Sequence record: NC_073051.1 | Reading direction: 5' to 3' (one strand) | Length of the DNA stretch: 37,268 bases | DNA from: Escherichia phage PEC14 | Part shown: positions 1,311 through 36,042 of the stretch, piece by piece | Layout of the letters: every line of letters begins with the position of its first letter | Numbering within the stretch: the stretch's first letter is position 1 | Made by a program: the position numbers and the translations under genes | Notes under the pieces: generated by a model | Told to the model about the DNA's origin: nothing | Databases searched by the model: none | What the model saw: only the letters and a program-made list of their open reading frames with translations

Positions 1311-1459
1311 AATCCGGGATTGCATAATACACGGCAGCACATTGGAAATCGCGGTCGTCGCTGAACTAGGCAACCAATGCGAGATGCAGAACGGGGTGTG
1401 AAAAATGCAGTTTGCAGTCACAGCAGATAGCGATCAACTTTTTCATGCGCATGATTAAT

Positions 1460-1836: not shown

Positions 1837-2106
1837 ATGGACCGCAGACGAGCTAAACAGCTTTCGTGGCATATTCCGCTGCATTGCATACGAATATGGG
1901 CGCAGAATGCGGTTGAGGGCGATTCTGTGTTCTGGTGCTATCGCGACGATGTGAAGCCATTAACGCAGACTCGCTATCTGCACCAGTTCGCCAGGGAGCA
2001 TGGGCTTGCCATAAAAACGTCCTTGCAACCAATTGGCATCCGTATTACATTACGCCGGAAGCCCGCAGTCGAGCGGGTAGGCAAACACTGGAGACTGAGC
2101 AAATGA
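1837..2106 (+). CDS. hypothetical protein (89 aa)
   Basis: ATG with AAGGGG SD; stop overlaps next start as ATGA. Confidence 0.4.
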   Translation: MDRRRAKQLSWHIPLHCIRIWAQNAVEGDSVFWCYRDDVKPLTQTRYLHQFAREHGLAIKTSLQPIGIRITLRRKPAVERVGKHWRLSK

Positions 2107-11953: not shown

Positions 11954-11989
11954 GCAACCAATATACTGCAACCAACATTCACAATGCAA
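11954..11989 (-). promoter_or_regulatory. candidate promoter for minus-strand cassette: two ATTGGTTGC-type motifs plus TTGCAT-N18-TATATT
   Basis: Motifs read on minus strand, oriented toward the start at 11924. Confidence 0.4.
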
Positions 11990-22743: not shown

Positions 22744-23351
22744 CAACGTTTAAATTGTACGGCGTCTTGGGGCGTCGTTTTGGTAGAGTGCATAAGCTGG
22801 ACTGCTTCACACCGGGCGAAGGCATCACCGGCTTGTGTGTGAAGTTGCCAGGGTTACAAGACTTTTTAATGTCCGCCCACCTGGACAACATGATGTTCAA
22901 GGTGCGCAAAGGCAACCACACAATGACCGGTTATGATGAGCTTGGCGAGTTCCACGGCAACCGCGTCGTTACCATCGCGCCGGTTATGACTGGCGCAAAA
23001 AGAGGATTGGGCCAATTGCTGGCGGGTGTTGCGATCGTAGTGGCGTCGTTCTATACGGGCGGACTTGCTACTGCCGCTTTCGGGGCTTCGGCTGCAACCG
23101 CTGCCGCTATTGGTACAGCGACGTTTTCGTTCGGCATGTCGATGGCGCTGGGTGGCGTTATGCAATTGCTGTCGCCTCAACCGAAAGGATTGCAGACACG
23201 GCAGGACGTGGATAACAAGGCTTCGTATGCGTTCGGTGGCCCGGTAAACACGACCGCGCAAGGTACGGCGCTTGGTGTATTATGGGGCGAGCGTGAGATC
23301 GGCGGCGCTATTATTTCAGCAGGAATCGTAACCGAGGATTTGAACGAATGA
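22734..23351 (+). CDS. tail assembly protein I-like
   Basis: Position between K-like and J-like genes; hydrophobic Gly/Ala-rich C-terminal half. Confidence 0.65.
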   Translation: MAMTTFKLYGVLGRRFGRVHKLDCFTPGEGITGLCVKLPGLQDFLMSAHLDNMMFKVRKGNHTMTGYDELGEFHGNRVVTIAPVMTGAKRGLGQLLAGVAIVVASFYTGGLATAAFGASAATAAAIGTATFSFGMSMALGGVMQLLSPQPKGLQTRQDVDNKASYAFGGPVNTTAQGTALGVLWGEREIGGAIISAGIVTEDLNE

Positions 23352-26300
23352 CGATTATTTACGACGTCACGGGCCATAAAGGCGGCGGTGGCAAACAGCA
23401 CACCCCACAGGAGACACCCGATAGCCTGCATTCTCTGGCTAAAATCCGCATCTTGCTTGCGCTGGGAGAAGGTGAGTTCGAAGGTATTCCAGACCCTAAC
23501 GAATTACGGCGGCGCGTATATCTGGAAGGAACACCGATCCAGAATGCAGACCTGTCTGAAAACTTCCCTGGGGCGCGTGTGGAGTTCCGCCCCGGAACAC
23601 AGCACCAGGATGTGATCCACGGATTTTCAGCGGTGGAAAGTGAGCAATCTGTCGGCGTAAAACTGGAAAACGGCACGCCGTGGGTGCGCCAGGTTAACGA
23701 CACCAGTCTGGACGCCGTTCGCATTCGCATCGGCATTCCGGCCCTGTACACTAACGAAGATAACGGCGACCTGGTGGGCGGGCGCATCGACTATAAGATC
23801 GTTGTATATACGGATAACGCCGACCCGCGTGAGTTCAGATTCGCCGCCGTTGGTAAAACAATGTCGCTATATGAGCGCGACCACCGCATCGAATTACCGC
23901 CGAACGTGAATGCCGGCTGGCGAGTGGAGGTGCACCGCATAACGGCAGACTCCACATCGGCGAAAGTTGTTAATGATATCCGGGTGCAATCCATCACTGA
24001 GATTATCGACGCCCGCCTGCGTTACCCGCTAACCGCGCTGTTGTTTGTGGAGTTCGACGCTAAAGCGTTCCAGAACATCCCGCGCGTGTCCATTAAGTGC
24101 AAAGGTCGCAAAGTTCTAATACCGAACAACTACGACCCGATCAATCATACCTATTCCGGTGACTGGGACGGCACGTTTAAACGCGCATGGACGGATAACC
24201 CTGCGTGGCACTGGTACGATATTTGTATTACTGAGCGCTTCGGCCTCGGTCGGCGTATCAAACCGCAAATGCTAAACCGATACGCGCTCTACCAGATTGC
24301 GCAGCGCTGCGATCAGTTGGTCAGCGACGGCAACGGTGGTCGAGAAATCCGCTTTAAGAATGATATGTACATTCAGTCACAGACGGATGCCTGGACCGTG
24401 CTTAAGGATTTAGCCGCCATCTTCGCCGGAATGACCTGGTGGGGCAACCAGATGTTGAATATCGTCAGTGACCAACCGGTCGCAGCAGTGTCGCACACTA
24501 TCACCAACGCCTCGGTAATTGATGGTCGATTCGACTACGCATCTGGCAGCCAGAAAACTCGCTATTCCACATTTGCGGTCGCATACGGCAACCCGAAGAA
24601 CCACTATGAAGATGCCATCGCCACGGGGCAGCGCGTCGAACTGGTACGCCGCCATAAGATTAACCGTCTTGATATTACGGCGATCGGCTGTACGCGCGAA
24701 TCTGAAGCGCAACGCCGCGGGCATTGGGCGCTAATATCCAACCAGCTTGACCAGCAAGTTAGTTTTAAGGTAGGCATGGAAGGGTTATTCTTTATTCCTG
24801 GTAGCGTAGTCGCGATCGCGGATACAAACATTTCTGGCGGATTCGAGACTCGCGGCGGTCGCCTGTTGTCGGACCCCGGAACGCGTACCGTGCTGAACAC
24901 GGACAGCGAAATCACATTCCGCCCTGGCGACAAGTTCCTGGTGCGCACCGATAGCGGTAACGTGGAGACTCGCGAGATCGCCAGCGTCAACGGCAACAAG
25001 GTCACGCTAAAAACCGCACTGGATGCCGACCCGATTCCAGACCAACCGTTTTGCGTTGATGGCGATGATATCCAGTTGCAAAAATTCCGCATCACCGATC
25101 TGGAGTATGACGACTCTACGAGCACTTTCTCGGTGCGCGGGATTGAATACAACGATAGCAAGTATGATGCCGTTGATAATGGCGCTCGCCTTGATCCTGG
25201 TATCTTCACGCAAGTGCCAGACGGTGTAATGAAGGGGCCGGAATCCGTTACCATCACCCCGTCGCAGATCTCATCGCAAGGCCAGCTAATCACCAACGTG
25301 GATATTGTTTTCCCGCCGGTGAAGGATGCCGTTGTTTATGAAATCCAGTGGCGGCGTACAAGCCTGCAGAATATGGCGGTCCAGTGGGGTAACGACTGGG
25401 TGAATATCCCACGCACGGCGTCGAATGGCGCGCACATCCCTAACGTGTTCTCCGGCAACTACCAGGCGCGCGTCCGTGCGATCGGTATGGGCGAGATTTC
25501 ATCCCCGTGGGTGTCGTCCGCCATCACGCCGGTCGAAGGTCGCCTCGGTGGGCTTAACGCACCAATCATCACCAACGCGATTTCGGGTCTGCACCAGATT
25601 CTATGGAAGTGGAACCACAACAACGCCGCTACGGATATCTCATACACCGAGCTTGAAGTGCGCAAGACGGGTGAGACGGAATGGAAATTCCTGTCCAACG
25701 TCCCATACCCAGGGTCGGATTATGCGCAAACGTCGCTGGAGTTCGGGATTTACCAGCAGTTGCGCGCCCGTGTAGCGGATAAAATCGGCAACCTGTCGGA
25801 CTGGTCCGCCCCGTTCGAAGGCCAGGTTAGTGACAAAGTTGACGAGTACATGAAGGGGCTTGAAGACGAGTTCTTGACTTCCGAGGATGGTAAACACTTC
25901 CAAGAAGCCATTAATACGATTCCGCAAGGCATTTACGAATCAATGCTCACGGACGCCCAGCAGATGTTCAACGCCCGCGCCGAGTACAAAGGGATTTACG
26001 CAGAAATCAAGGTCGCATATAACGTGGCGGCAGACGCCAACAAGGCTGTCGCGCAACTGGAAACGTTGATCGGCACTCGCCTTGACGATGCGGAAGCGGC
26101 AATCCACACGTTGCAGACAGCGCAAAGCACGCACGAGCAAGCATTCGCCCAGTATCAGCAAACTGTTGCCGCTAAGTTCGGGGAACAGGACGCCGCCATC
26201 CAGCAGGTACAAACGGCAACGGCAGACGTAGCGGGCGTGCTGGCGGAGTACAAGACCCAGGTGGCGGCACAGTTCGGTAAGCAGTCTGCAGCTATCGAGC

Positions 26301-26794
26301 AGAAGATGACGTCTTCGTTTAATCATGCTGGGGGCAGCGCCACATATAGCCTTAAGGCTGGCGTGACGTATAACGGGGCTTACTACGATGCCGGTATGCA
26401 GCTTTCCGTCGTTGCGGAAGGCGGCGCGGTTAAATCACGCATCGCGTTCAAGGCGGACCAGTTCTACATCATGCACCCGTCGAATGGGTCGCTTTCGTCC
26501 GCGTTTATCGTTGACGGCGGACAGGTGTACATTGACACGGCGCGCATCAAGAATGCGTCCATCAACTTCGCACAGATCACGGACACGCTGCAATCCAATA
26601 ACTGGAATCCGGGTAGCAGCGGCTGGCGTATCGCGAAGGATGGCGGGGCGGAGTTCAACAACGTAACGGTCCGAGGCAACTTGTTCGCGACTACGGGTAA
26701 TTTCGGATTCTCCGGCGGGTCCGTTACGATCGACGCAACGGGCGTTAACGTGCCATTACCTGGCGGTGGTAGGGTGAAAGTGGGGACGTGGTAA
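23348..26794 (+). CDS. central tail fibre / host specificity protein J-like
   Basis: 1148 aa; GAGGA SD; last gene of the M-L-K-I-J series. Confidence 0.8.
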   Translation: MTIIYDVTGHKGGGGKQHTPQETPDSLHSLAKIRILLALGEGEFEGIPDPNELRRRVYLEGTPIQNADLSENFPGARVEFRPGTQHQDVIHGFSAVESEQSVGVKLENGTPWVRQVNDTSLDAVRIRIGIPALYTNEDNGDLVGGRIDYKIVVYTDNADPREFRFAAVGKTMSLYERDHRIELPPNVNAGWRVEVHRITADSTSAKVVNDIRVQSITEIIDARLRYPLTALLFVEFDAKAFQNIPRVSIKCKGRKVLIPNNYDPINHTYSGDWDGTFKRAWTDNPAWHWYDICITERFGLGRRIKPQMLNRYALYQIAQRCDQLVSDGNGGREIRFKNDMYIQSQTDAWTVLKDLAAIFAGMTWWGNQMLNIVSDQPVAAVSHTITNASVIDGRFDYASGSQKTRYSTFAVAYGNPKNHYEDAIATGQRVELVRRHKINRLDITAIGCTRESEAQRRGHWALISNQLDQQVSFKVGMEGLFFIPGSVVAIADTNISGGFETRGGRLLSDPGTRTVLNTDSEITFRPGDKFLVRTDSGNVETREIASVNGNKVTLKTALDADPIPDQPFCVDGDDIQLQKFRITDLEYDDSTSTFSVRGIEYNDSKYDAVDNGARLDPGIFTQVPDGVMKGPESVTITPSQISSQGQLITNVDIVFPPVKDAVVYEIQWRRTSLQNMAVQWGNDWVNIPRTASNGAHIPNVFSGNYQARVRAIGMGEISSPWVSSAITPVEGRLGGLNAPIITNAISGLHQILWKWNHNNAATDISYTELEVRKTGETEWKFLSNVPYPGSDYAQTSLEFGIYQQLRARVADKIGNLSDWSAPFEGQVSDKVDEYMKGLEDEFLTSEDGKHFQEAINTIPQGIYESMLTDAQQMFNARAEYKGIYAEIKVAYNVAADANKAVAQLETLIGTRLDDAEAAIHTLQTAQSTHEQAFAQYQQTVAAKFGEQDAAIQQVQTATADVAGVLAEYKTQVAAQFGKQSAAIEQKMTSSFNHAGGSATYSLKAGVTYNGAYYDAGMQLSVVAEGGAVKSRIAFKADQFYIMHPSNGSLSSAFIVDGGQVYIDTARIKNASINFAQITDTLQSNNWNPGSSGWRIAKDGGAEFNNVTVRGNLFATTGNFGFSGGSVTIDATGVNVPLPGGGRVKVGTW

Positions 26795-26800
26795 ATGCGA

Positions 26801-26820
26801 AGGGGCCATCTGGCCCCTTT
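26801..26820. terminator. bidirectional terminator between J-like gene and convergent minus-strand gene
   Basis: aggggccatctggcccct flanked by T/A runs. Confidence 0.6.
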
Positions 26821-27786
26821 CTAATACATGTTAGGGATGACTAGTAACGGTGTGGGTACGGTTACATTACGATTAGGAATCTGGAATTGCTGCCGTGAGT
26901 AGTTACCGATCACGCGATTTCGTGCCGCGCTAACCACGTTTCCCGCCATGCGTATCCCGTTCATTCGCACGTGGTTATATCCGCTGTTGTTCTCAATGAG
27001 CGCGCCGGTATATGAAAGCTGTACTAGGCTGTTGCCGATATTCTGACCGCCAGTGCCGATATTAATTACGGAATTGAGGACGAACGGCTTGTTAACGGTA
27101 GAGAACGTGACCTGTCCCTGGTTGTTAGTCATGGTGATCCCGGCCCCCGGCGTGGGTGGTGTATTGTTGAATATTACCAGGTCCATGTCCACCGAAGCCG
27201 CCACATCGTCGATACCACCATAGGACGCGTTGCGGACGATAATACTGCCACCATCGAAGCCTACTGATACGTTGCCGTCATCCCAGCGGGCGAACGGGAC
27301 ACCGCTAACTGGCAAGGCCATACTCCCGTTGACGCGCACGCGCTTCGCGTATCGGCAGGTCATCAGCTTTGCCACGTTGGATATTGCGGTGAAGTCCGTT
27401 GAGTTAGCTACGAGCAGGCCCGCGTTGCGCGAACCAACCGGCAGCACTTCCATTATGACGCCCGCCCATTGTGGTAAACCAGAGTACGCGCCATACGCAT
27501 CATCACCGCGCAGGGTGATTCCGCTATTACCGTTGCGAGTAACAGACGTGACGTAAAACGGATCGGGTATTACCAGGGTCTGGTCGAACACTTCAATCAC
27601 CTCTACCGGGCGAGTGAGCGCGACGATGACCTGCGACCCCGCCGTAAGAGGGGTGTTAATGGTTAGCGTCTTGTTGGATTGCGCCCGCTGGTTAAAGCTG
27701 GTGCAGTATGACGGCGCGCGGAGTCCCGCGGTTATCTCCATGACAGGTCTACCGTCGTTGTAGTCTATTAATATTCCAGCGCCCAT
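26821..27786 (-). CDS. beta-rich protein, candidate receptor-binding protein (321 aa)
   Basis: N/G/S/T/V-rich; ATG 27786 with GGGAG SD right after the lipoprotein stop; transcribed opposite to tail genes. Confidence 0.5.
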   Translation of the reverse strand: MGAGILIDYNDGRPVMEITAGLRAPSYCTSFNQRAQSNKTLTINTPLTAGSQVIVALTRPVEVIEVFDQTLVIPDPFYVTSVTRNGNSGITLRGDDAYGAYSGLPQWAGVIMEVLPVGSRNAGLLVANSTDFTAISNVAKLMTCRYAKRVRVNGSMALPVSGVPFARWDDGNVSVGFDGGSIIVRNASYGGIDDVAASVDMDLVIFNNTPPTPGAGITMTNNQGQVTFSTVNKPFVLNSVINIGTGGQNIGNSLVQLSYTGALIENNSGYNHVRMNGIRMAGNVVSAARNRVIGNYSRQQFQIPNRNVTVPTPLLVIPNMY

Positions 27787-27788
27787 TA

Positions 27789-28010
27789 TTACCACTCCCG
27801 TGATTTAACTGAAACAGTGCCGGAAAAATTGCCGTCACTGTCGGCAGACAGACCAGTGAAGCGCATGTCCACATCCCCGGACGGGATTTTTCGCCCGTCA
27901 ACGTAACGCAACATGCAGCTGCCGTACGCAACCGTAATGCAATCGCCGTTGTTGCGTTCTACGGCACAACCGGACAAAAGAACCGCACAAATCATAATTA
28001 AAGTTTTCAT
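27789..28010 (-). CDS. small lipoprotein (73 aa), candidate superinfection-exclusion protein
   Basis: Signal peptide MKTLIMICAVLLSGC with lipobox; AGGTGA SD; track TTG start replaced by ATG 28010. Confidence 0.6.
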   Translation of the reverse strand: MKTLIMICAVLLSGCAVERNNGDCITVAYGSCMLRYVDGRKIPSGDVDMRFTGLSADSDGNFSGTVSVKSREW

Positions 28011-28040
28011 GGTATCATCACCTATATTTGGTCGAGTTTT

Positions 28041-28074
28041 AGTATTACACCGCTCGATCAAGAATGCAACCAAT
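28041..28074 (-). promoter_or_regulatory. candidate promoter ATTGGTTGCAT-N17-AATACT driving lipoprotein operon
   Basis: Motif on minus strand in the divergent region between lipoprotein and fibre genes. Confidence 0.35.
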
Positions 28075-28090
28075 TTACGAGGATTTAGCT

Positions 28091-29923
28091 ATGGCAGCGG
28101 GTACACTATCCGTAACGAATAACAGCAAGGCGGTTGTCGGGGTAGGCACGACGTTTACCGCGGTTAAAGCCGGAGACTTCTTATCGCTGGTAGTGGGGCA
28201 AGTACCCTACACTGTTGCGATCGCGTCCGTAGAAAGCGACACCGCGATTACGCTTGTGCTGCCGTTCGACGGACCCACGGCAACTGGCCTCGCGTGGGAT
28301 GGCGTTAAGCGCGATACCATGTCGCTGGCAACGATGGGCGTAACAGTACAGGCGCAGAAAGCGTTGCGCTTGATGATCGCGGACGAAAACAACTGGCGCG
28401 CAATCTTCGGAGACGAGGAAGAAATCGCGGTAACGCTGCCGAACGGGCAAGTTATGCAGGGTATGTCGTGGGGCTATCTGTCGCAATTGCTGAAGGAAGT
28501 TGACCCCGTTGAAATGCGCAACCTGCAACAACAAGCCGCGGCATCTGAAGCAGCAGCGCTGGTATCGCGTAATGAGGCCGAAGGCTTCAAGAACGATACC
28601 AATACCATCAAGACGCAGACCAACCAGATTAAGGCAGATACGCAGGCTATCCGCGACGCCACCAATACCATCAAGACGCAGACCAACAAGATTAAGGCAG
28701 ATACGCAGGCCATCAAAGACCAGACGAACCAGATCAAGACTGACACCGGCGTTATGAGGGACCAGGCCAACGCTGCGAAGACTGACGCGCAAGCTGCCAG
28801 CGCAGCCGCGCAGGGATTCCGCGATCAGGCCGAGGAGTGGGCGCAAAGCGTTAACGCGGATAACCTGCTAACAAAATCCGGCAACCTGGCAGGGCTTGCG
28901 GATAAATCGGCGTCGTGGAAGAACCTTATGCCTGCGGGGCCGCTGCGAATTGGGGCGCACCCCGTTGCGGACCTGGATGCCGCGACCCGGAAATGGACGC
29001 TGGAGCGTTTTACCAAAGGCGTGGCGGAGTCGTCGTGGACTGTCAGGAAAACCGTCACCACCACACCACAGAACGGCACTGTCGTCCGTGGCGGTGAGGT
29101 GGAATCGAGATATTCCAACCCAACATCTACGCAGTTCGCCCGTCTGTACTCAAGCTCTGTATTTGGTTCTTCTAACGCGGCTGTTGTTGAGGCAGAGGGT
29201 TCTTCCAGGCACGCTTATAAATTCTATGAGGATGGCACAGTTGACTTCCGACAGTCAGGGAAGACCAACCCATTCCGCATGTATACAAATATTGGAACAT
29301 GGAATGGCATAACGGACGCCACGGCATCCAACTTGACAACTAACGGAATGGACAGGGTGGCCATTTCGAGCGGCTCAGATACTCTGGTGCACGGATATTC
29401 TATCGGCGGCACCAAACCTAATGGATATCCAACAAAGGTTGGATATCACATGTATATTCCAGGCAATAATGCATTTGGTATTGCTTGCATGGTAATCGGT
29501 GGGGATAACGGAAAATTTTGCCGTTACTTTTTTGACATTGATGGTCTAATATATGGTTCGACCGATTACGGGAACTTCAGTTATATGAAAAATGGCACTT
29601 CTGACTTACGTGTAAAACACGGCATCGCCCATGTTGGAGTTGACAAATCATACTCTAATATTAAAGGGCTGGAATTTGTAGAGTTCATTTATGATAATGA
29701 CGAACAAAATCGAGTTCGGCATGGCGTGATTGCACAGCAAGCAGAGGTTGTTGAGCCTTTATATGTCAAGACGCGCAAATATGTTGGCAATAATCCAGGA
29801 GAGATTGTGGAGCAGAAGGAACTGGACACTACGCCGATGCTTCTGGATACCATGCATGTTGTGCAGACGTTGATGCAGAAGATCGAGGCTATGGAGGCCG
29901 AGATCGCGGCGCTGAAGAAATGA
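28091..29923 (+). CDS. side tail fibre with C-terminal intramolecular chaperone (peptidase S74-like) domain
   Basis: Start at ATG 28091 with GAGGA SD; heptad-like repeat shaft; C-terminal SDLRVKHGI...coiled-coil ending typical of self-cleaving chaperone domains. Confidence 0.75.
   Translation: MAAGTLSVTNNSKAVVGVGTTFTAVKAGDFLSLVVGQVPYTVAIASVESDTAITLVLPFDGPTATGLAWDGVKRDTMSLATMGVTVQAQKALRLMIADENNWRAIFGDEEEIAVTLPNGQVMQGMSWGYLSQLLKEVDPVEMRNLQQQAAASEAAALVSRNEAEGFKNDTNTIKTQTNQIKADTQAIRDATNTIKTQTNKIKADTQAIKDQTNQIKTDTGVMRDQANAAKTDAQAASAAAQGFRDQAEEWAQSVNADNLLTKSGNLAGLADKSASWKNLMPAGPLRIGAHPVADLDAATRKWTLERFTKGVAESSWTVRKTVTTTPQNGTVVRGGEVESRYSNPTSTQFARLYSSSVFGSSNAAVVEAEGSSRHAYKFYEDGTVDFRQSGKTNPFRMYTNIGTWNGITDATASNLTTNGMDRVAISSGSDTLVHGYSIGGTKPNGYPTKVGYHMYIPGNNAFGIACMVIGGDNGKFCRYFFDIDGLIYGSTDYGNFSYMKNGTSDLRVKHGIAHVGVDKSYSNIKGLEFVEFIYDNDEQNRVRHGVIAQQAEVVEPLYVKTRKYVGNNPGEIVEQKELDTTPMLLDTMHVVQTLMQKIEAMEAEIAALKK
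28598..28723 (+). repeat. in-frame 63-bp tandem duplication in fibre shaft
   Basis: Two adjacent near-identical 63-bp units encoding TNTIKTQTN(Q/K)IKADTQAI... Confidence 0.7.
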
Positions 29924-29927
29924 ATCA

Positions 29928-29952
29928 GAGGGGCCATTCGGCCCCTCTTTTT
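29928..29952. terminator. bidirectional terminator between fibre gene and convergent minus-strand block
   Basis: agaggggccattcggcccctct followed by ttttt. Confidence 0.65.
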
Positions 29953-31137: not shown

Positions 31138-31167
31138 ACTATAGTGCAACCAATCTATTGGTTGCAA
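31138..31167 (-). promoter_or_regulatory. perfect palindrome TGCAACCAAT-CT-ATTGGTTGCA with TTGCAA-N18-TATAGT
   Basis: Read directly at 31145-31166; overlaps the 3' end of the HAD gene and lies upstream of the gene starting at 31090. Confidence 0.45.
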
Positions 31168-33051: not shown

Positions 33052-33085
33052 AATATAATGCAACCAATATGATTATGCAACCAAT
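33052..33085 (-). promoter_or_regulatory. candidate promoter: two ATTGGTTGCAT copies with TTGCAT-N17-TATATT
   Basis: Read on minus strand at 33060-33068 and 33077-33085; -10 at 33052-33057. Confidence 0.45.
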
Positions 33086-36008: not shown

Positions 36009-36042
36009 ACTATACCGCTACGCGACCAATTCAGCAACCAAT
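36009..36042 (-). promoter_or_regulatory. candidate promoter ATTGGTTGCTG-N17-TATAGT inside 3' end of VRR-NUC gene
   Basis: Motif copies at 36022-36030 and 36034-36042; -10 at 36009-36014. Confidence 0.35.

Follow-up and report, generated by a model that had tools for sequence, protein, structure and literature searches.

A probable LptDE-directed receptor-binding protein and its partner lipoprotein in an exchangeable cassette of the Dhillonvirus PEC14

Introduction

Two adjacent minus-strand genes lie between the central and the lateral tail fibre genes of Escherichia phage PEC14. What do their products do, and to which receptor are they directed? A sequence-only reading of this DNA had proposed a receptor-blocking lipoprotein and a candidate receptor-binding protein (RBP), by comparison with phage T5 and with Cor-type lipoproteins. 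We followed up this proposal within the window, i.e., the whole stretch of 37,268 nucleotides of record NC_073051.1. The region is that of a Dhillonvirus and shows 99.9% identity here to Escherichia phage PEC9.

The two genes very probably encode an LptDE-directed RBP and an LptDE-blocking lipoprotein, together the terminal-receptor module of the Dhillonvirus, an explanation that rests on the orthology, family membership, fold, synteny, cassette boundaries and covariation computed here. Such a module is already known, since it was described and structurally solved in phage Oekolampad (Bas18), and nothing in it is conceptually new. The cassette boundaries, the mosaic structure of the RBP under purifying selection and the over-representation of the motif ATTGGTTGC are new here.

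Layout of the locus

The J homologue (central fibre) occupies positions 23348-26794 of the plus strand on one flank of the module, and the other flank is formed by the lateral fibre gene, also on the plus strand, which ends at 29923 and has alternative starts at 28064 and 28091. These coordinates confirm the location of the pair between a J-like and a side fibre gene. The sequence likewise bears out a 73-aa lipoprotein with lipobox LLSG/C (minus strand, 28010..27789; ATG at 28010, TAA at 27791-27789) followed after two bases (TA), on the same strand, by the ATG of a 321-aa reading frame, the RBP gene (27786..26821; ATG at 27786, TAG at 26823-26821). The stop codons of J and of the RBP gene are convergent and 26 nt apart. 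An alternative GTG start at 27795 would give an RBP of 324 aa; all annotated orthologues, as well as the PDB construct, start with MGAGILIDY.

Shine-Dalgarno-like sequences precede both ATGs, namely GGTGA for the lipoprotein and GGGAG for the RBP. The latter, as read from the sequence (27795..27799, minus strand), falls within the 3' end of the lipoprotein gene, suggesting that the two genes may be translationally coupled. Relatives with as little as 33% identity, among them Rtp, HK578, Sfin-4 and UDF157lw, retain the order lipoprotein then RBP and a spacing of 2-5 nt, and the two genes of PEC14 probably form one co-transcribed minus-strand unit.

The 321-residue protein resembles an RBP solved on LptDE

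The larger protein matches the Pfam family DUF6453 (PF20051) over residues 4-297 (E = 2.4e-120, 401.7 bits for a cut-off of 25) and is identical at 299 of 321 positions (93%, E = 6e-198, full length) to Oekolampad bas18_0025 (PDB 9RPT chain C). It also shows 34% identity to Rtp44 of phage Rtp, which matches PF20051 as well. RBPs have been assigned to a family when they align at full coverage, with 30% identity or more, to a protein whose receptor is experimentally established (bioRxiv 10.64898/2026.04.02.716166), and the PEC14 protein shows 93% over 321/321 residues to 9RPT_C. The structure prediction called for by the sequence-only reading yielded an AlphaFold2 model with pLDDT 85 and pTM 0.85 from a 39-sequence alignment (a single-sequence run gave pLDDT 30), and this model has the fold of the solved Oekolampad RBP: Foldseek aligned it to 9rpt_C with E = 3.9e-35, a TM-score of 0.90 (on target) and an rmsd of 2.5 Å, and 9rpt_C was its only PDB match at E<=1e-3. 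The description of the protein as rich in N, G, S and T (together 34.6%) and in beta structure also held, the model being almost all beta.

The Oekolampad RBP was resolved by cryo-EM on open LptDE (PDB 9RPT; PNAS 2025, PMC12685063 / bioRxiv 10.1101/2025.07.07.663478). The purified protein binds the extracellular face of LptDE, the LptD substitutions D352Y and Y671N abolish its binding, and binding-abolishing mutations confer phage resistance (PMC12685063). Gln299, whose equivalent contacts LptD Ser350 in the published Oekolampad structure, is conserved in PEC14. Similarly, mutations in LptD were found to confer resistance to Bas18, with the locus type tracking the receptor 'without exception' (PMC8594841), a link later upheld at larger scale (bioRxiv 10.64898/2026.04.02.716166). 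The identity to a protein solved on LptDE supports the earlier proposal that the 321-aa protein is the RBP, and the concern that it would be too short for such a role falls away because DUF6453 proteins (311-321 aa) are a separate, smaller kind of RBP. By analogy with Oekolampad, the predicted binding site of the protein is the lumen of LptDE together with its extracellular face, and LptD would be the receptor used by PEC14.

Other features of the locus are shared with Oekolampad, a Dhillonvirus too, namely the site, gene order, spacing, Pfam families and type of J tip, and structures are available for it as PDB 9RPT, 9RPW and 9RQI. The two phages differ in their lateral fibre and host background, PEC9 having been isolated on avian pathogenic E. 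coli.

The RBP is presumably part of the virion, where it would sit at the central fibre tip. No virion proteomics covering a DUF6453 protein was found in the searchable literature, and the sole Dhillonvirus proteomics concerns an unrelated 224-aa cassette protein of phage EE09, whose layout and sizes resemble those of an FhuA-type cassette. A modular N-terminal adaptor was considered on the basis of a 34-residue, 82% match in Citrobacter phage HCF1 and set aside, as the context fits a truncated cassette remnant adjoining a longer J (read from genomic context only).

Recombination and selection in the RBP

Compared to Oekolampad, 20 of the 22 substitutions in the RBP fall in residues 215-309, a stretch that includes Gln299, and they form clusters at 237-247, 284-289 and 303-309 that partly coincide with loops of lower pLDDT. 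This C-terminal allele is common to EK99P-1, JL1 and bov11C2. Synonymous divergence from Oekolampad is 0.30 in the first part of the gene and then 0.99 in the second, and in the same two parts it is 1.06 and then 0.20 from JL1, a switch that indicates intragenic recombination between two lineages of one family. Diversifying selection at the receptor interface was rejected as the cause of the cluster, dN/dS being low (0.03-0.15) throughout the gene. The RBP is therefore a recombinant mosaic under purifying selection, with a C-terminal third of the JL1/EK99P-1 lineage.

The concentration of substitutions in the stretch that includes Gln299 implies that fine specificity may differ from that of Oekolampad, and the recombinant C-terminal third might dock differently on LptD, escaping resistance by D352Y or Y671N. 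A more radical reading of the same cluster, in which a module of this kind targets another outer-membrane protein or docks on LptD in a materially different way, appears improbable: the RBP remains 93% identical to that of Oekolampad and keeps the contact residue Gln299, its divergent allele came by recombination within the family and is under purifying selection, its partner lipoprotein shares 95% identity with the Oekolampad one, and across small siphoviruses even proteins of this RBP family that reach only 30% identity are assigned to LptD (bioRxiv 10.64898/2026.04.02.716166).

An exchangeable cassette that includes the J tip

Nucleotide homology breakpoints place the cassette from ~26604 (J codon ~1086) to 27961, just 3' of the lipobox; it takes in the C-terminal ~45 residues of J but not the lipoprotein signal peptide. 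Homology ends at 26603 in the comparison with the FhuA-type phage JLBYU60 and at 26678 with HK578 (Rtp44/45-type). J shares 76-100% identity with its counterparts in other Dhillonviruses in the 400 upstream alignment columns, whereas over its last ~45 columns identity is 39% to the FhuA type, 53% to the Rtp type and 89-100% within the Oekolampad-type group. The C-terminal tip (26604..26794, plus strand) is thus specific to the cassette type with which it co-varies, and is of the Oekolampad type in PEC14. It presumably docks the RBP, as was also proposed elsewhere (bioRxiv 10.64898/2026.04.02.716166). In a set of 11 phages, RBP identity rises and falls with lipoprotein identity (Spearman 0.91, for pairwise comparisons that are not independent).

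In the FhuA-dependent Dhillonvirus JLBYU60, precisely this position between J and the lateral fibre gene is taken by an unrelated cassette; JLBYU60 shares with PEC14 the flanking DNA, the divergent spacer and a 16-residue lipoprotein signal peptide. There, two plus-strand genes, gp25 and gp26 (100 and 224 aa), accompany a separate minus-strand lipoprotein gene, gp27; the mature proteins are unrelated to those of PEC14 (hhalign probability 0.6%, no match to PF20051 or PF24052), as is the J tip. An N-terminal tail-docking motif common to both types (MGAGILIDYNDGRP compared with MANYGALIDLPNGNP of gp26) was rejected, since hhalign gave 0.6% and its only alignment lay elsewhere. The RBP, the lipoprotein and the J tip move together between small siphoviruses as one exchangeable unit.

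The linkage of RBP type to J tip type also bears on the annotation of the 321-aa protein as a 'membrane protein' or moron, which would act outside the virion in host conversion, partnered by the lipoprotein in the envelope. PHROG 1265 is indeed labelled 'membrane protein; moron, auxiliary metabolic gene and host takeover', RefSeq names the orthologues 'membrane protein', both genes run counter to the tail operon, and homologues occur in Citrobacter, Salmonella and E. coli prophages. However, neither a signal peptide nor a hydrophobic segment was found in the 321-aa protein, the J tip co-varies with its type, the locus type predicts the receptor (PMC8594841; bioRxiv 10.64898/2026.04.02.716166), and the purified orthologue binds LptDE from outside and loses this binding through resistance point mutations (PMC12685063). 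A search for an experimental basis of the 'membrane protein' label found none, and 'DUF6453' appeared in the literature in one unrelated paper only. We regard this annotation as highly improbable and retain the reading of the protein as an LptDE-directed RBP.

The lipoprotein belongs to the Rtp45 family

According to the Lol sorting rule, the residue at position +2 of a lipoprotein decides its membrane. The N-terminus of the 73-aa protein reads MKTLIMICAVLLSG/CA, with a signal peptide of 14 residues (28010-27969, minus strand) and a lipidated Cys15 encoded at 27968-27966. Its +2 residue is Ala, no inner-membrane retention residue, and by this rule sorting to the outer membrane is predicted. 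The protein matches Pfam PF24052 and no other Pfam family (E = 4e-21, 75.2 bits for a cut-off of 27); the score of Rtp45 against this model is 128 bits. It is identical at 69 of 73 positions (95%, four substitutions) to Oekolampad bas18_0026 and 35% identical to Rtp45 (PDB 9RPS chain D; phmmer E = 1e-7). An alignment of 7 homologues shows no variation at Gly14, Cys15, G22, P43, G45, D48, R50, G53, E72 and W73, nor at Cys24 and Cys32, which align to the Cys30-Cys38 disulphide described for Rtp45 (PMC12685063).

In phage Rtp (Drexlerviridae), Rtp44 and Rtp45 belong to the same two Pfam families, and the lipoprotein gene again precedes the RBP gene, 3' of and convergent with the J homologue, whose tip is ~50% identical to that of PEC14. 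Rtp45 shares the disulphide cysteines and the C-terminal EW, and is the only protein of the lipoprotein family for which a complex has been solved. Rtp differs by belonging to another phage family and by its genes, which overlap by one base where those of PEC14 are separated by 2 nt. The cryo-EM structure of Rtp45 with LptDE (PDB 9RPS) shows it bound to the periplasmic side with the loop EL4 displaced (PMC12685063), so that the RBP cannot dock. The Oekolampad lipoprotein could not be expressed (PMC12685063), and exclusion and LptDE binding have thus been shown only for the 35% identical Rtp45; no in vivo exclusion assay for Rtp45 was seen in the sections consulted of that paper. Near-identity to bas18_0026 and homology to the LptDE-binding Rtp45 support the earlier view of the lipoprotein as a receptor blocker, which by analogy would exclude superinfection by blocking LptDE. 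We consider it rather unlikely that an Oekolampad-type lipoprotein would in addition obstruct the export of LPS by the essential LptDE, acting as a natural LptD inhibitor; such an effect could explain why the Oekolampad protein was not expressible and Rtp45 was.

The likeness to T5 and to Cor did not hold. T5 pb5, a 640-aa protein whose receptor is FhuA, has no sequence or fold relation to the RBP of PEC14 (best BLASTP E = 4.2; hhalign probability 0.13%; no pb5 chain among the best 50 Foldseek PDB matches listed for the model). The T5 genes oad and llp diverge from back-to-back promoters, whereas those of PEC14 are co-directional, with the lipoprotein upstream and a 2-nt gap, contrary to the comparable arrangement proposed before. 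Llp also acts by long-range allostery and Rtp45 by steric displacement of EL4 (PMC12685063). The large protein, the lipoprotein and the arrangement all argue against membership in the pb5/Llp system; likewise, the mature lipoprotein has no match to Cor, and the resemblance of the lipoprotein to Llp and Cor is confined to its signal peptide. The lipoprotein is small, bound for the outer membrane and encoded beside tail genes, which would also suit an Llp- or Cor-type blocker of FhuA or an o-spanin (lysis lipoprotein). That it is one of these instead of an LptDE blocker is hardly credible, for its alignments to Cor (PHROG 1119, phi80, T1 and N15 type; residues 1-30, E = 7e-4), to Llp (residues 2-16, E = 0.017) and to the FhuA-cassette exclusion lipoprotein of JLBYU60 (an identical signal peptide, residues 1-16) are confined to the signal peptide, its mature part belongs with Rtp45 in PF24052, disulphide cysteines included, and neither Llp nor the JLBYU60 lipoprotein matches that family. 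The predicted receptor is the LPS translocon LptDE, not FhuA.

Lipoprotein homologues also occur in Kuravirus podoviruses, where they might be a sign of an unrecognised role of LptDE in the entry of these phages or in cross-exclusion.

Proposed mechanism and implications

In the proposed mechanism, a monomeric RBP would sit at the tip of the J central fibre, on its cassette-specific last ~45 residues, enter the extracellular mouth of LptDE and contact EL3-5 and EL11 of open LptD, a docking that would commit the phage to DNA injection. After export and lipidation at Cys15, the lipoprotein would be anchored to the outer membrane through its inner leaflet, where it may bind the periplasmic side of LptDE and push a hairpin up the lumen. 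This hairpin would displace and lock EL4 and thereby prevent RBP docking, and infected cells and post-lysis debris would no longer adsorb and waste progeny or admit competitors.

Both genes, which are 'hypothetical protein' entries in the PEC9 record, can now be named, with LptD as the predicted terminal receptor; more generally, DUF6453 may be read as an LptD-binding RBP and PF24052 as an Rtp45-type LptDE-binding lipoprotein. As LptD is essential and conserved, its prediction as receptor is useful for the choice of phage cocktails against avian pathogenic E. coli, although resistance arises by single point mutations in LptD at no obvious cost (PMC12685063). The mapped cassette boundaries offer practical junctions for swapping the receptor specificity of Dhillonviruses.

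Terminator and promoter candidates

The pair had been described as flanked by bidirectional terminators, and this stands on one side. A GC-rich hairpin at 26799-26820, formed on both strands by the inverted repeat AAGGGGCC/GGCCCCTT, lies between the convergent J and RBP stops (folding energies of -18.8 and -16.6 kcal/mol, z of -3.4 and -3.2, on the plus and minus strand, respectively). It is conserved in 7 relatives, and HK578 and Rtp have a different hairpin in the same place. The terminator scan did not call it because its T tract is weak, and we propose it as a candidate bidirectional terminator at the left boundary of the transcription unit. On the other side, no hairpin was found in the 80-nt divergent spacer 5' of the pair, and a second hairpin (29927-29948) does not adjoin the pair and is located only beyond the lateral fibre gene, on its 3' side. 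No Rfam family of structured RNA matched at E<=1 in 26500-28300.

A ATTGGTTGC-type promoter had also been proposed. No consensus sigma-70 promoter was called 5' of the lipoprotein, the sole nearby call overlapping the start codon. The best hand reading of a candidate is TTGCAT-17-(TG)tAATACT, with a possible extended -10, TGtAATACT, at 28049-28041 (minus strand) in the divergent spacer; the pattern TTGC-N17-TGnAATACT has no second occurrence in the window. The 9-mer itself (28066-28074, minus strand, 56 nt 5' of the lipoprotein ATG) is real and strongly over-represented, with 13 exact copies in the window for ~0.3 expected, and 25 copies with at most one mismatch for 10.7 ± 3.5 in shuffles. 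We retain ATTGGTTGC as a putative promoter element of the lipoprotein/RBP unit. The divergent spacer (28011..28090), which separates the minus-strand lipoprotein gene from the plus-strand lateral fibre gene, is nearly invariant among nine Dhillonviruses carrying three different cassettes, and the minus-strand unit would be bounded by this conserved spacer and by the hairpin at 26799-26820.

A probable LptD-targeting module between J and the lateral fibre gene

The minus-strand gene pair lying between the lambda-J-like central fibre gene (J) and the lateral fibre gene very probably encodes a receptor-binding protein directed at LptD and a lipoprotein blocking LptDE, the outer-membrane LPS translocon; the binding-protein half of this explanation is stronger than the lipoprotein half. 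The lipoprotein ORF (73 aa; ATG 28010 to TAA 27789, minus strand) has the N-terminus MKTLIMICAVLLSG followed by CA, with a classical lipoprotein signal peptide and lipobox, and the binding-protein ORF (321 aa; ATG 27786 to TAG 26821, minus strand) begins two bases past its stop. Shine-Dalgarno-like sequences precede both starts, GGTGA for the lipoprotein and GGGAG for the binding protein, the latter falling within the 3' end of the lipoprotein gene, and co-transcription of the two genes is to be expected by orthology. Since the residue at +2 governs lipoprotein sorting (Lol rule), the Ala found there predicts sorting to the outer membrane. N, G, S and T together make up 34.6% of the binding protein, the whole sequence of which has no hydrophobic segment. 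The pair is flanked on one side by the J homologue (1148 aa, plus strand; PF24801, PF13550 and PF09327; phrog_31) and on the other side by a lateral tail fibre of 619 aa with a C-terminal intramolecular chaperone domain. This layout, composition and neighbourhood agree with the sequence-only reading, which had correctly placed and described the ORFs, the 2-nt gap, the lipobox and the position between J and fibre.

The region of the pair is 99.9% identical to Escherichia phage PEC9, in which both genes are annotated as "hypothetical protein" and whose paper does not address the receptor. Many other Dhillonvirus genomes, EK99P-1, PC2, JL1, SO-1 and Oekolampad (Bas18) among them, match it at 84-92% identity. 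The binding protein matches Pfam DUF6453 (PF20051, E=2.4e-120) and is identical at 299 of 321 residues to Oekolampad bas18_0025, which is chain C of PDB 9RPT, 9RPW and 9RQI (E=6e-198). The structure prediction that the sequence-only reading had proposed was run with AlphaFold2 from 39 family members and gave a nearly all-beta model (pLDDT 85) with the fold of this solved receptor-binding protein (9rpt_C, E=3.9e-35, TM 0.90), no other PDB chain matching at E<=1e-3. The lipoprotein matches PF24052 (E=4e-21), Oekolampad bas18_0026 (69/73 identical) and Rtp45, the lipoprotein of phage Rtp (PDB 9RPS chain D, E=1e-7). In an alignment of seven homologues, its Cys24 and Cys32 fall on the two cysteines of the Rtp45 disulphide (Cys30-Cys38), and no variation occurs at G22, P43, G45, D48, R50, G53 or the C-terminal E-W.

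Bas18 resistance was traced to lptD, and across Drexlerviridae, Dhillonvirus, Nonagvirus and Seuratvirus the receptor corresponds "without exception" to the kind of locus that follows gpJ (Maffei et al., PMC8594841), a rule confirmed over 101 siphoviruses in a 2026 preprint that also flagged the C-terminal tip of GpJ as specificity-associated (10.64898/2026.04.02.716166). In the work of Dunbar et al. (PNAS 2025, PMC12685063; bioRxiv 10.1101/2025.07.07.663478), the complex of the purified Oekolampad protein with LptDE was solved at about 2.8 A, with the protein deep in the lumen of an open LptD barrel, contacting extracellular loops (EL) 3-5 and EL11 over an interface of ~1700 A2. Its Gln299 contacts LptD Ser350, and the LptD resistance mutations D352Y and Y671N abolish binding in vitro. 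In the LptDE-Rtp45 structure of the same study, Rtp45 occupies the periplasmic rim, flanked by LptE and LptM, from where its hairpin reaches into the lumen and displaces EL4 by as much as 20 A, a shift that rules out binding-protein docking; the Oekolampad lipoprotein could not be expressed (PMC12685063).

We infer by orthology that PEC14 depends on LptD, and on the same basis the 321-aa protein would be incorporated in the virion and the PEC14 lipoprotein allele would mediate exclusion. Virion proteomics for a DUF6453 protein was not found in the literature; the sole Dhillonvirus virion data, from EE09, detected in virion preparations a 224-aa protein whose gene lies between those for the fibre and J; in size and position this protein resembles gp26 of the FhuA-type cassette. 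The proposal of a receptor-binding protein with a receptor-blocking lipoprotein is supported with corrections, the receptor being LptD and the families DUF6453 and PF24052 rather than those of T5 and Cor. The module is already known from a 93-95% identical sister phage, for which it was foreseen in 2021 and given a structural explanation in 2025. The value here lies in the annotation of both genes and in some mapped detail of the cassette boundaries.

Comparison with T5 and Cor

The analogy with phage T5 drawn in the earlier reading holds in function, but not in sequence, fold, gene arrangement or blocking mechanism. T5 pb5 (640 aa) has no sequence similarity to the binding protein (BLASTP E=4.2; hhalign probability 0.13%), and its chain is absent from the best 50 fold matches listed for the model. 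T5 oad and llp are divergent, whereas the two genes here are co-directional, and Llp acts allosterically on FhuA, whereas Rtp45 acts sterically on LptD (PMC12685063). The Llp alignment is confined to the signal peptide and the Cor match (PHROG) to residues 1-30; with Llp and Cor likeness stopping there and the pair belonging to DUF6453/PF24052, membership of the T5 or Cor type is excluded.

Cassette exchange and mosaicism

In the FhuA-dependent Dhillonvirus JLBYU60, the same site holds a wholly different cassette of two plus-strand genes (100 and 224 aa) and a minus-strand exclusion lipoprotein. Nucleotide homology with JLBYU60 ends at 26603, within J, and resumes at 27962, just past the lipobox; with HK578, which has a cassette of the type of Rtp44 and Rtp45 (the Rtp binding protein and lipoprotein), it breaks at 26678 and 27997. 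The exchangeable cassette (26604-27961) is thus sharply bounded, its left edge about 45-63 codons before the J stop and its right edge directly after the lipobox. Because of this right edge, LptD-type and FhuA-type exclusion lipoproteins with unrelated mature parts share an identical 16-residue signal peptide and the upstream spacer. Among Dhillonviruses, J is 76-100% identical up to its last ~45 residues, which follow cassette type (89-100% identity within the Oekolampad type, 53% to HK578, 39% to JLBYU60). The functional module therefore reaches past the 26821-28010 interval of the sequence-only reading into the end of J.

The binding-protein gene (26821-27786, minus strand) is itself a mosaic, put together by intragenic recombination from two lineages of one family, and evolves under purifying selection. 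Its product differs from the solved Oekolampad protein at 22 positions, 20 of them in residues 215-309, a clustering that could evoke diversifying selection. However, dN/dS is 0.03-0.15 throughout, and at the codon 214/215 junction synonymous divergence changes about 3- to 5-fold, from 0.30 (codons 1-214) to 0.99 (codons 215-321) against Oekolampad and, reversed, from 1.06 to 0.20 against JL1; diversifying selection is thereby ruled out. Codons 1-214 are nearest to Oekolampad/SO-1 and codons 215-321 to JL1/EK99P-1/bov11C2.

Distribution and relatives

Phage records with a tblastn match number 344 for the binding protein and 320 for the lipoprotein. At all loci inspected for both, the lipoprotein gene is followed directly by the binding-protein gene with a 2-5 nt gap or a one-base overlap, an order and tight spacing that hold down to 33% identity (Rtp, HK578, Sfin-4, UDF157lw, XJA18). 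From one phage pair to the next, identity in the binding protein rises and falls with identity in the lipoprotein (Spearman 0.91 for 11 phages, the pairs not being independent).

Kuravirus-type podoviruses encode in their early region a clear Rtp45-family lipoprotein (PF24052, E=2.4e-36; phiEco32 gp106, locus L016, 2468-2749) in which the lipobox, the disulphide cysteine pair and the EW at the C-terminus are all retained; tblastn matches extend to NJ01, IMEP8, AnnaHegner_Bas87 and other Gordonclarkvirinae records, a group absent from 40 sampled of the 344 DUF6453 matches. Either LptDE has a role at some stage in these podoviruses, or they shut out siphoviruses that target LptD; the BASEL-2 paper makes no link between them and LptD. 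In Citrobacter phage HCF1 (locus L015, 2272-2602), an 83-aa ORF occupies the exclusion-lipoprotein position downstream of a longer J homologue, and is followed by a DUF6453-like gene that breaks off after its first 34 codons (82% identity to the PEC14 protein), where the sequence enters J. The arrangement has the look of an LptD-type cassette that has decayed, and the HCF1 J may have taken over receptor binding. DUF6453 proteins of 35-57% identity are also frequent in the chromosomes of Citrobacter, Salmonella, E. coli and Trabulsiella (homologues P0046-P0113), with one on an E. coli plasmid, and copies with 54% identity occur in the Salmonella phages SPN3UB and Oslo. The chromosomal homologues presumably belong to prophages, so that LptD would be a target of temperate siphoviruses of these genera too.

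Hairpins, divergent spacer and a repeated 9-mer

J and the binding-protein gene converge on a stable GC hairpin at 26799-26820, with folding energies of -18.8 and -16.6 kcal/mol for the two strands, which lies between their stop codons and is conserved in relatives, but its T tracts are weak and a terminator scanner made no call there. The pair had been described as flanked by bidirectional terminators; this hairpin is one candidate, and the second one, probably that at 29927-29948, lies past the fibre gene.

The 80-nt divergent spacer on the 5' side of the pair, common to the fibre gene, is almost invariant in nine Dhillonviruses with three different cassettes and holds ATTGGTTGC. Thirteen exact copies of this 9-mer were counted in 37 kb (about 0.3 expected), and 25 copies with at most one mismatch (10.7 +/- 3.5 in shuffles). 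The search returned twelve distinct start positions, at 1054-1062, 1089-1097, 1370-1378(-), 1460-1468, 2025-2033(-), 11954-11962(-), 28066-28074(-), 31146-31154(-), 31157-31165(+), 33060-33068(-), 33077-33085(-) and 36034-36042(-). Nearly all copies are intergenic, often in tandem pairs 12-35 nt apart; one perfect palindrome, GCAACCAAT-ct-ATTGGTTGC, lies at 31146-31165, and some copies run on as ATTGGTyGCACACCAAC, itself partly palindromic. The 9-mer is a real, phage-specific signal and may act either as a promoter element of the phage or as the binding site of a regulator that the phage encodes. The promoter-type motif of the sequence-only reading survives as an over-represented element, but the promoter scan called no sigma-70 consensus site at it in the spacer, and its distance to -10-like hexamers differs from copy to copy.

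The lateral fibre start is annotated two ways: PEC9 has it at ATG 28064, and Oekolampad, EK99P-1, JL1 and SO-1 have it at ATG 28091. The first of these ATGs shares bases with the ATTGGTTGC motif on the opposite strand (region 28064-28093). Further into the fibre gene, a 63-nt (21-aa) tandem repeat, TNxIKTQTNxIKADTQAIxD, is present in 2.3 copies (28598-28740).
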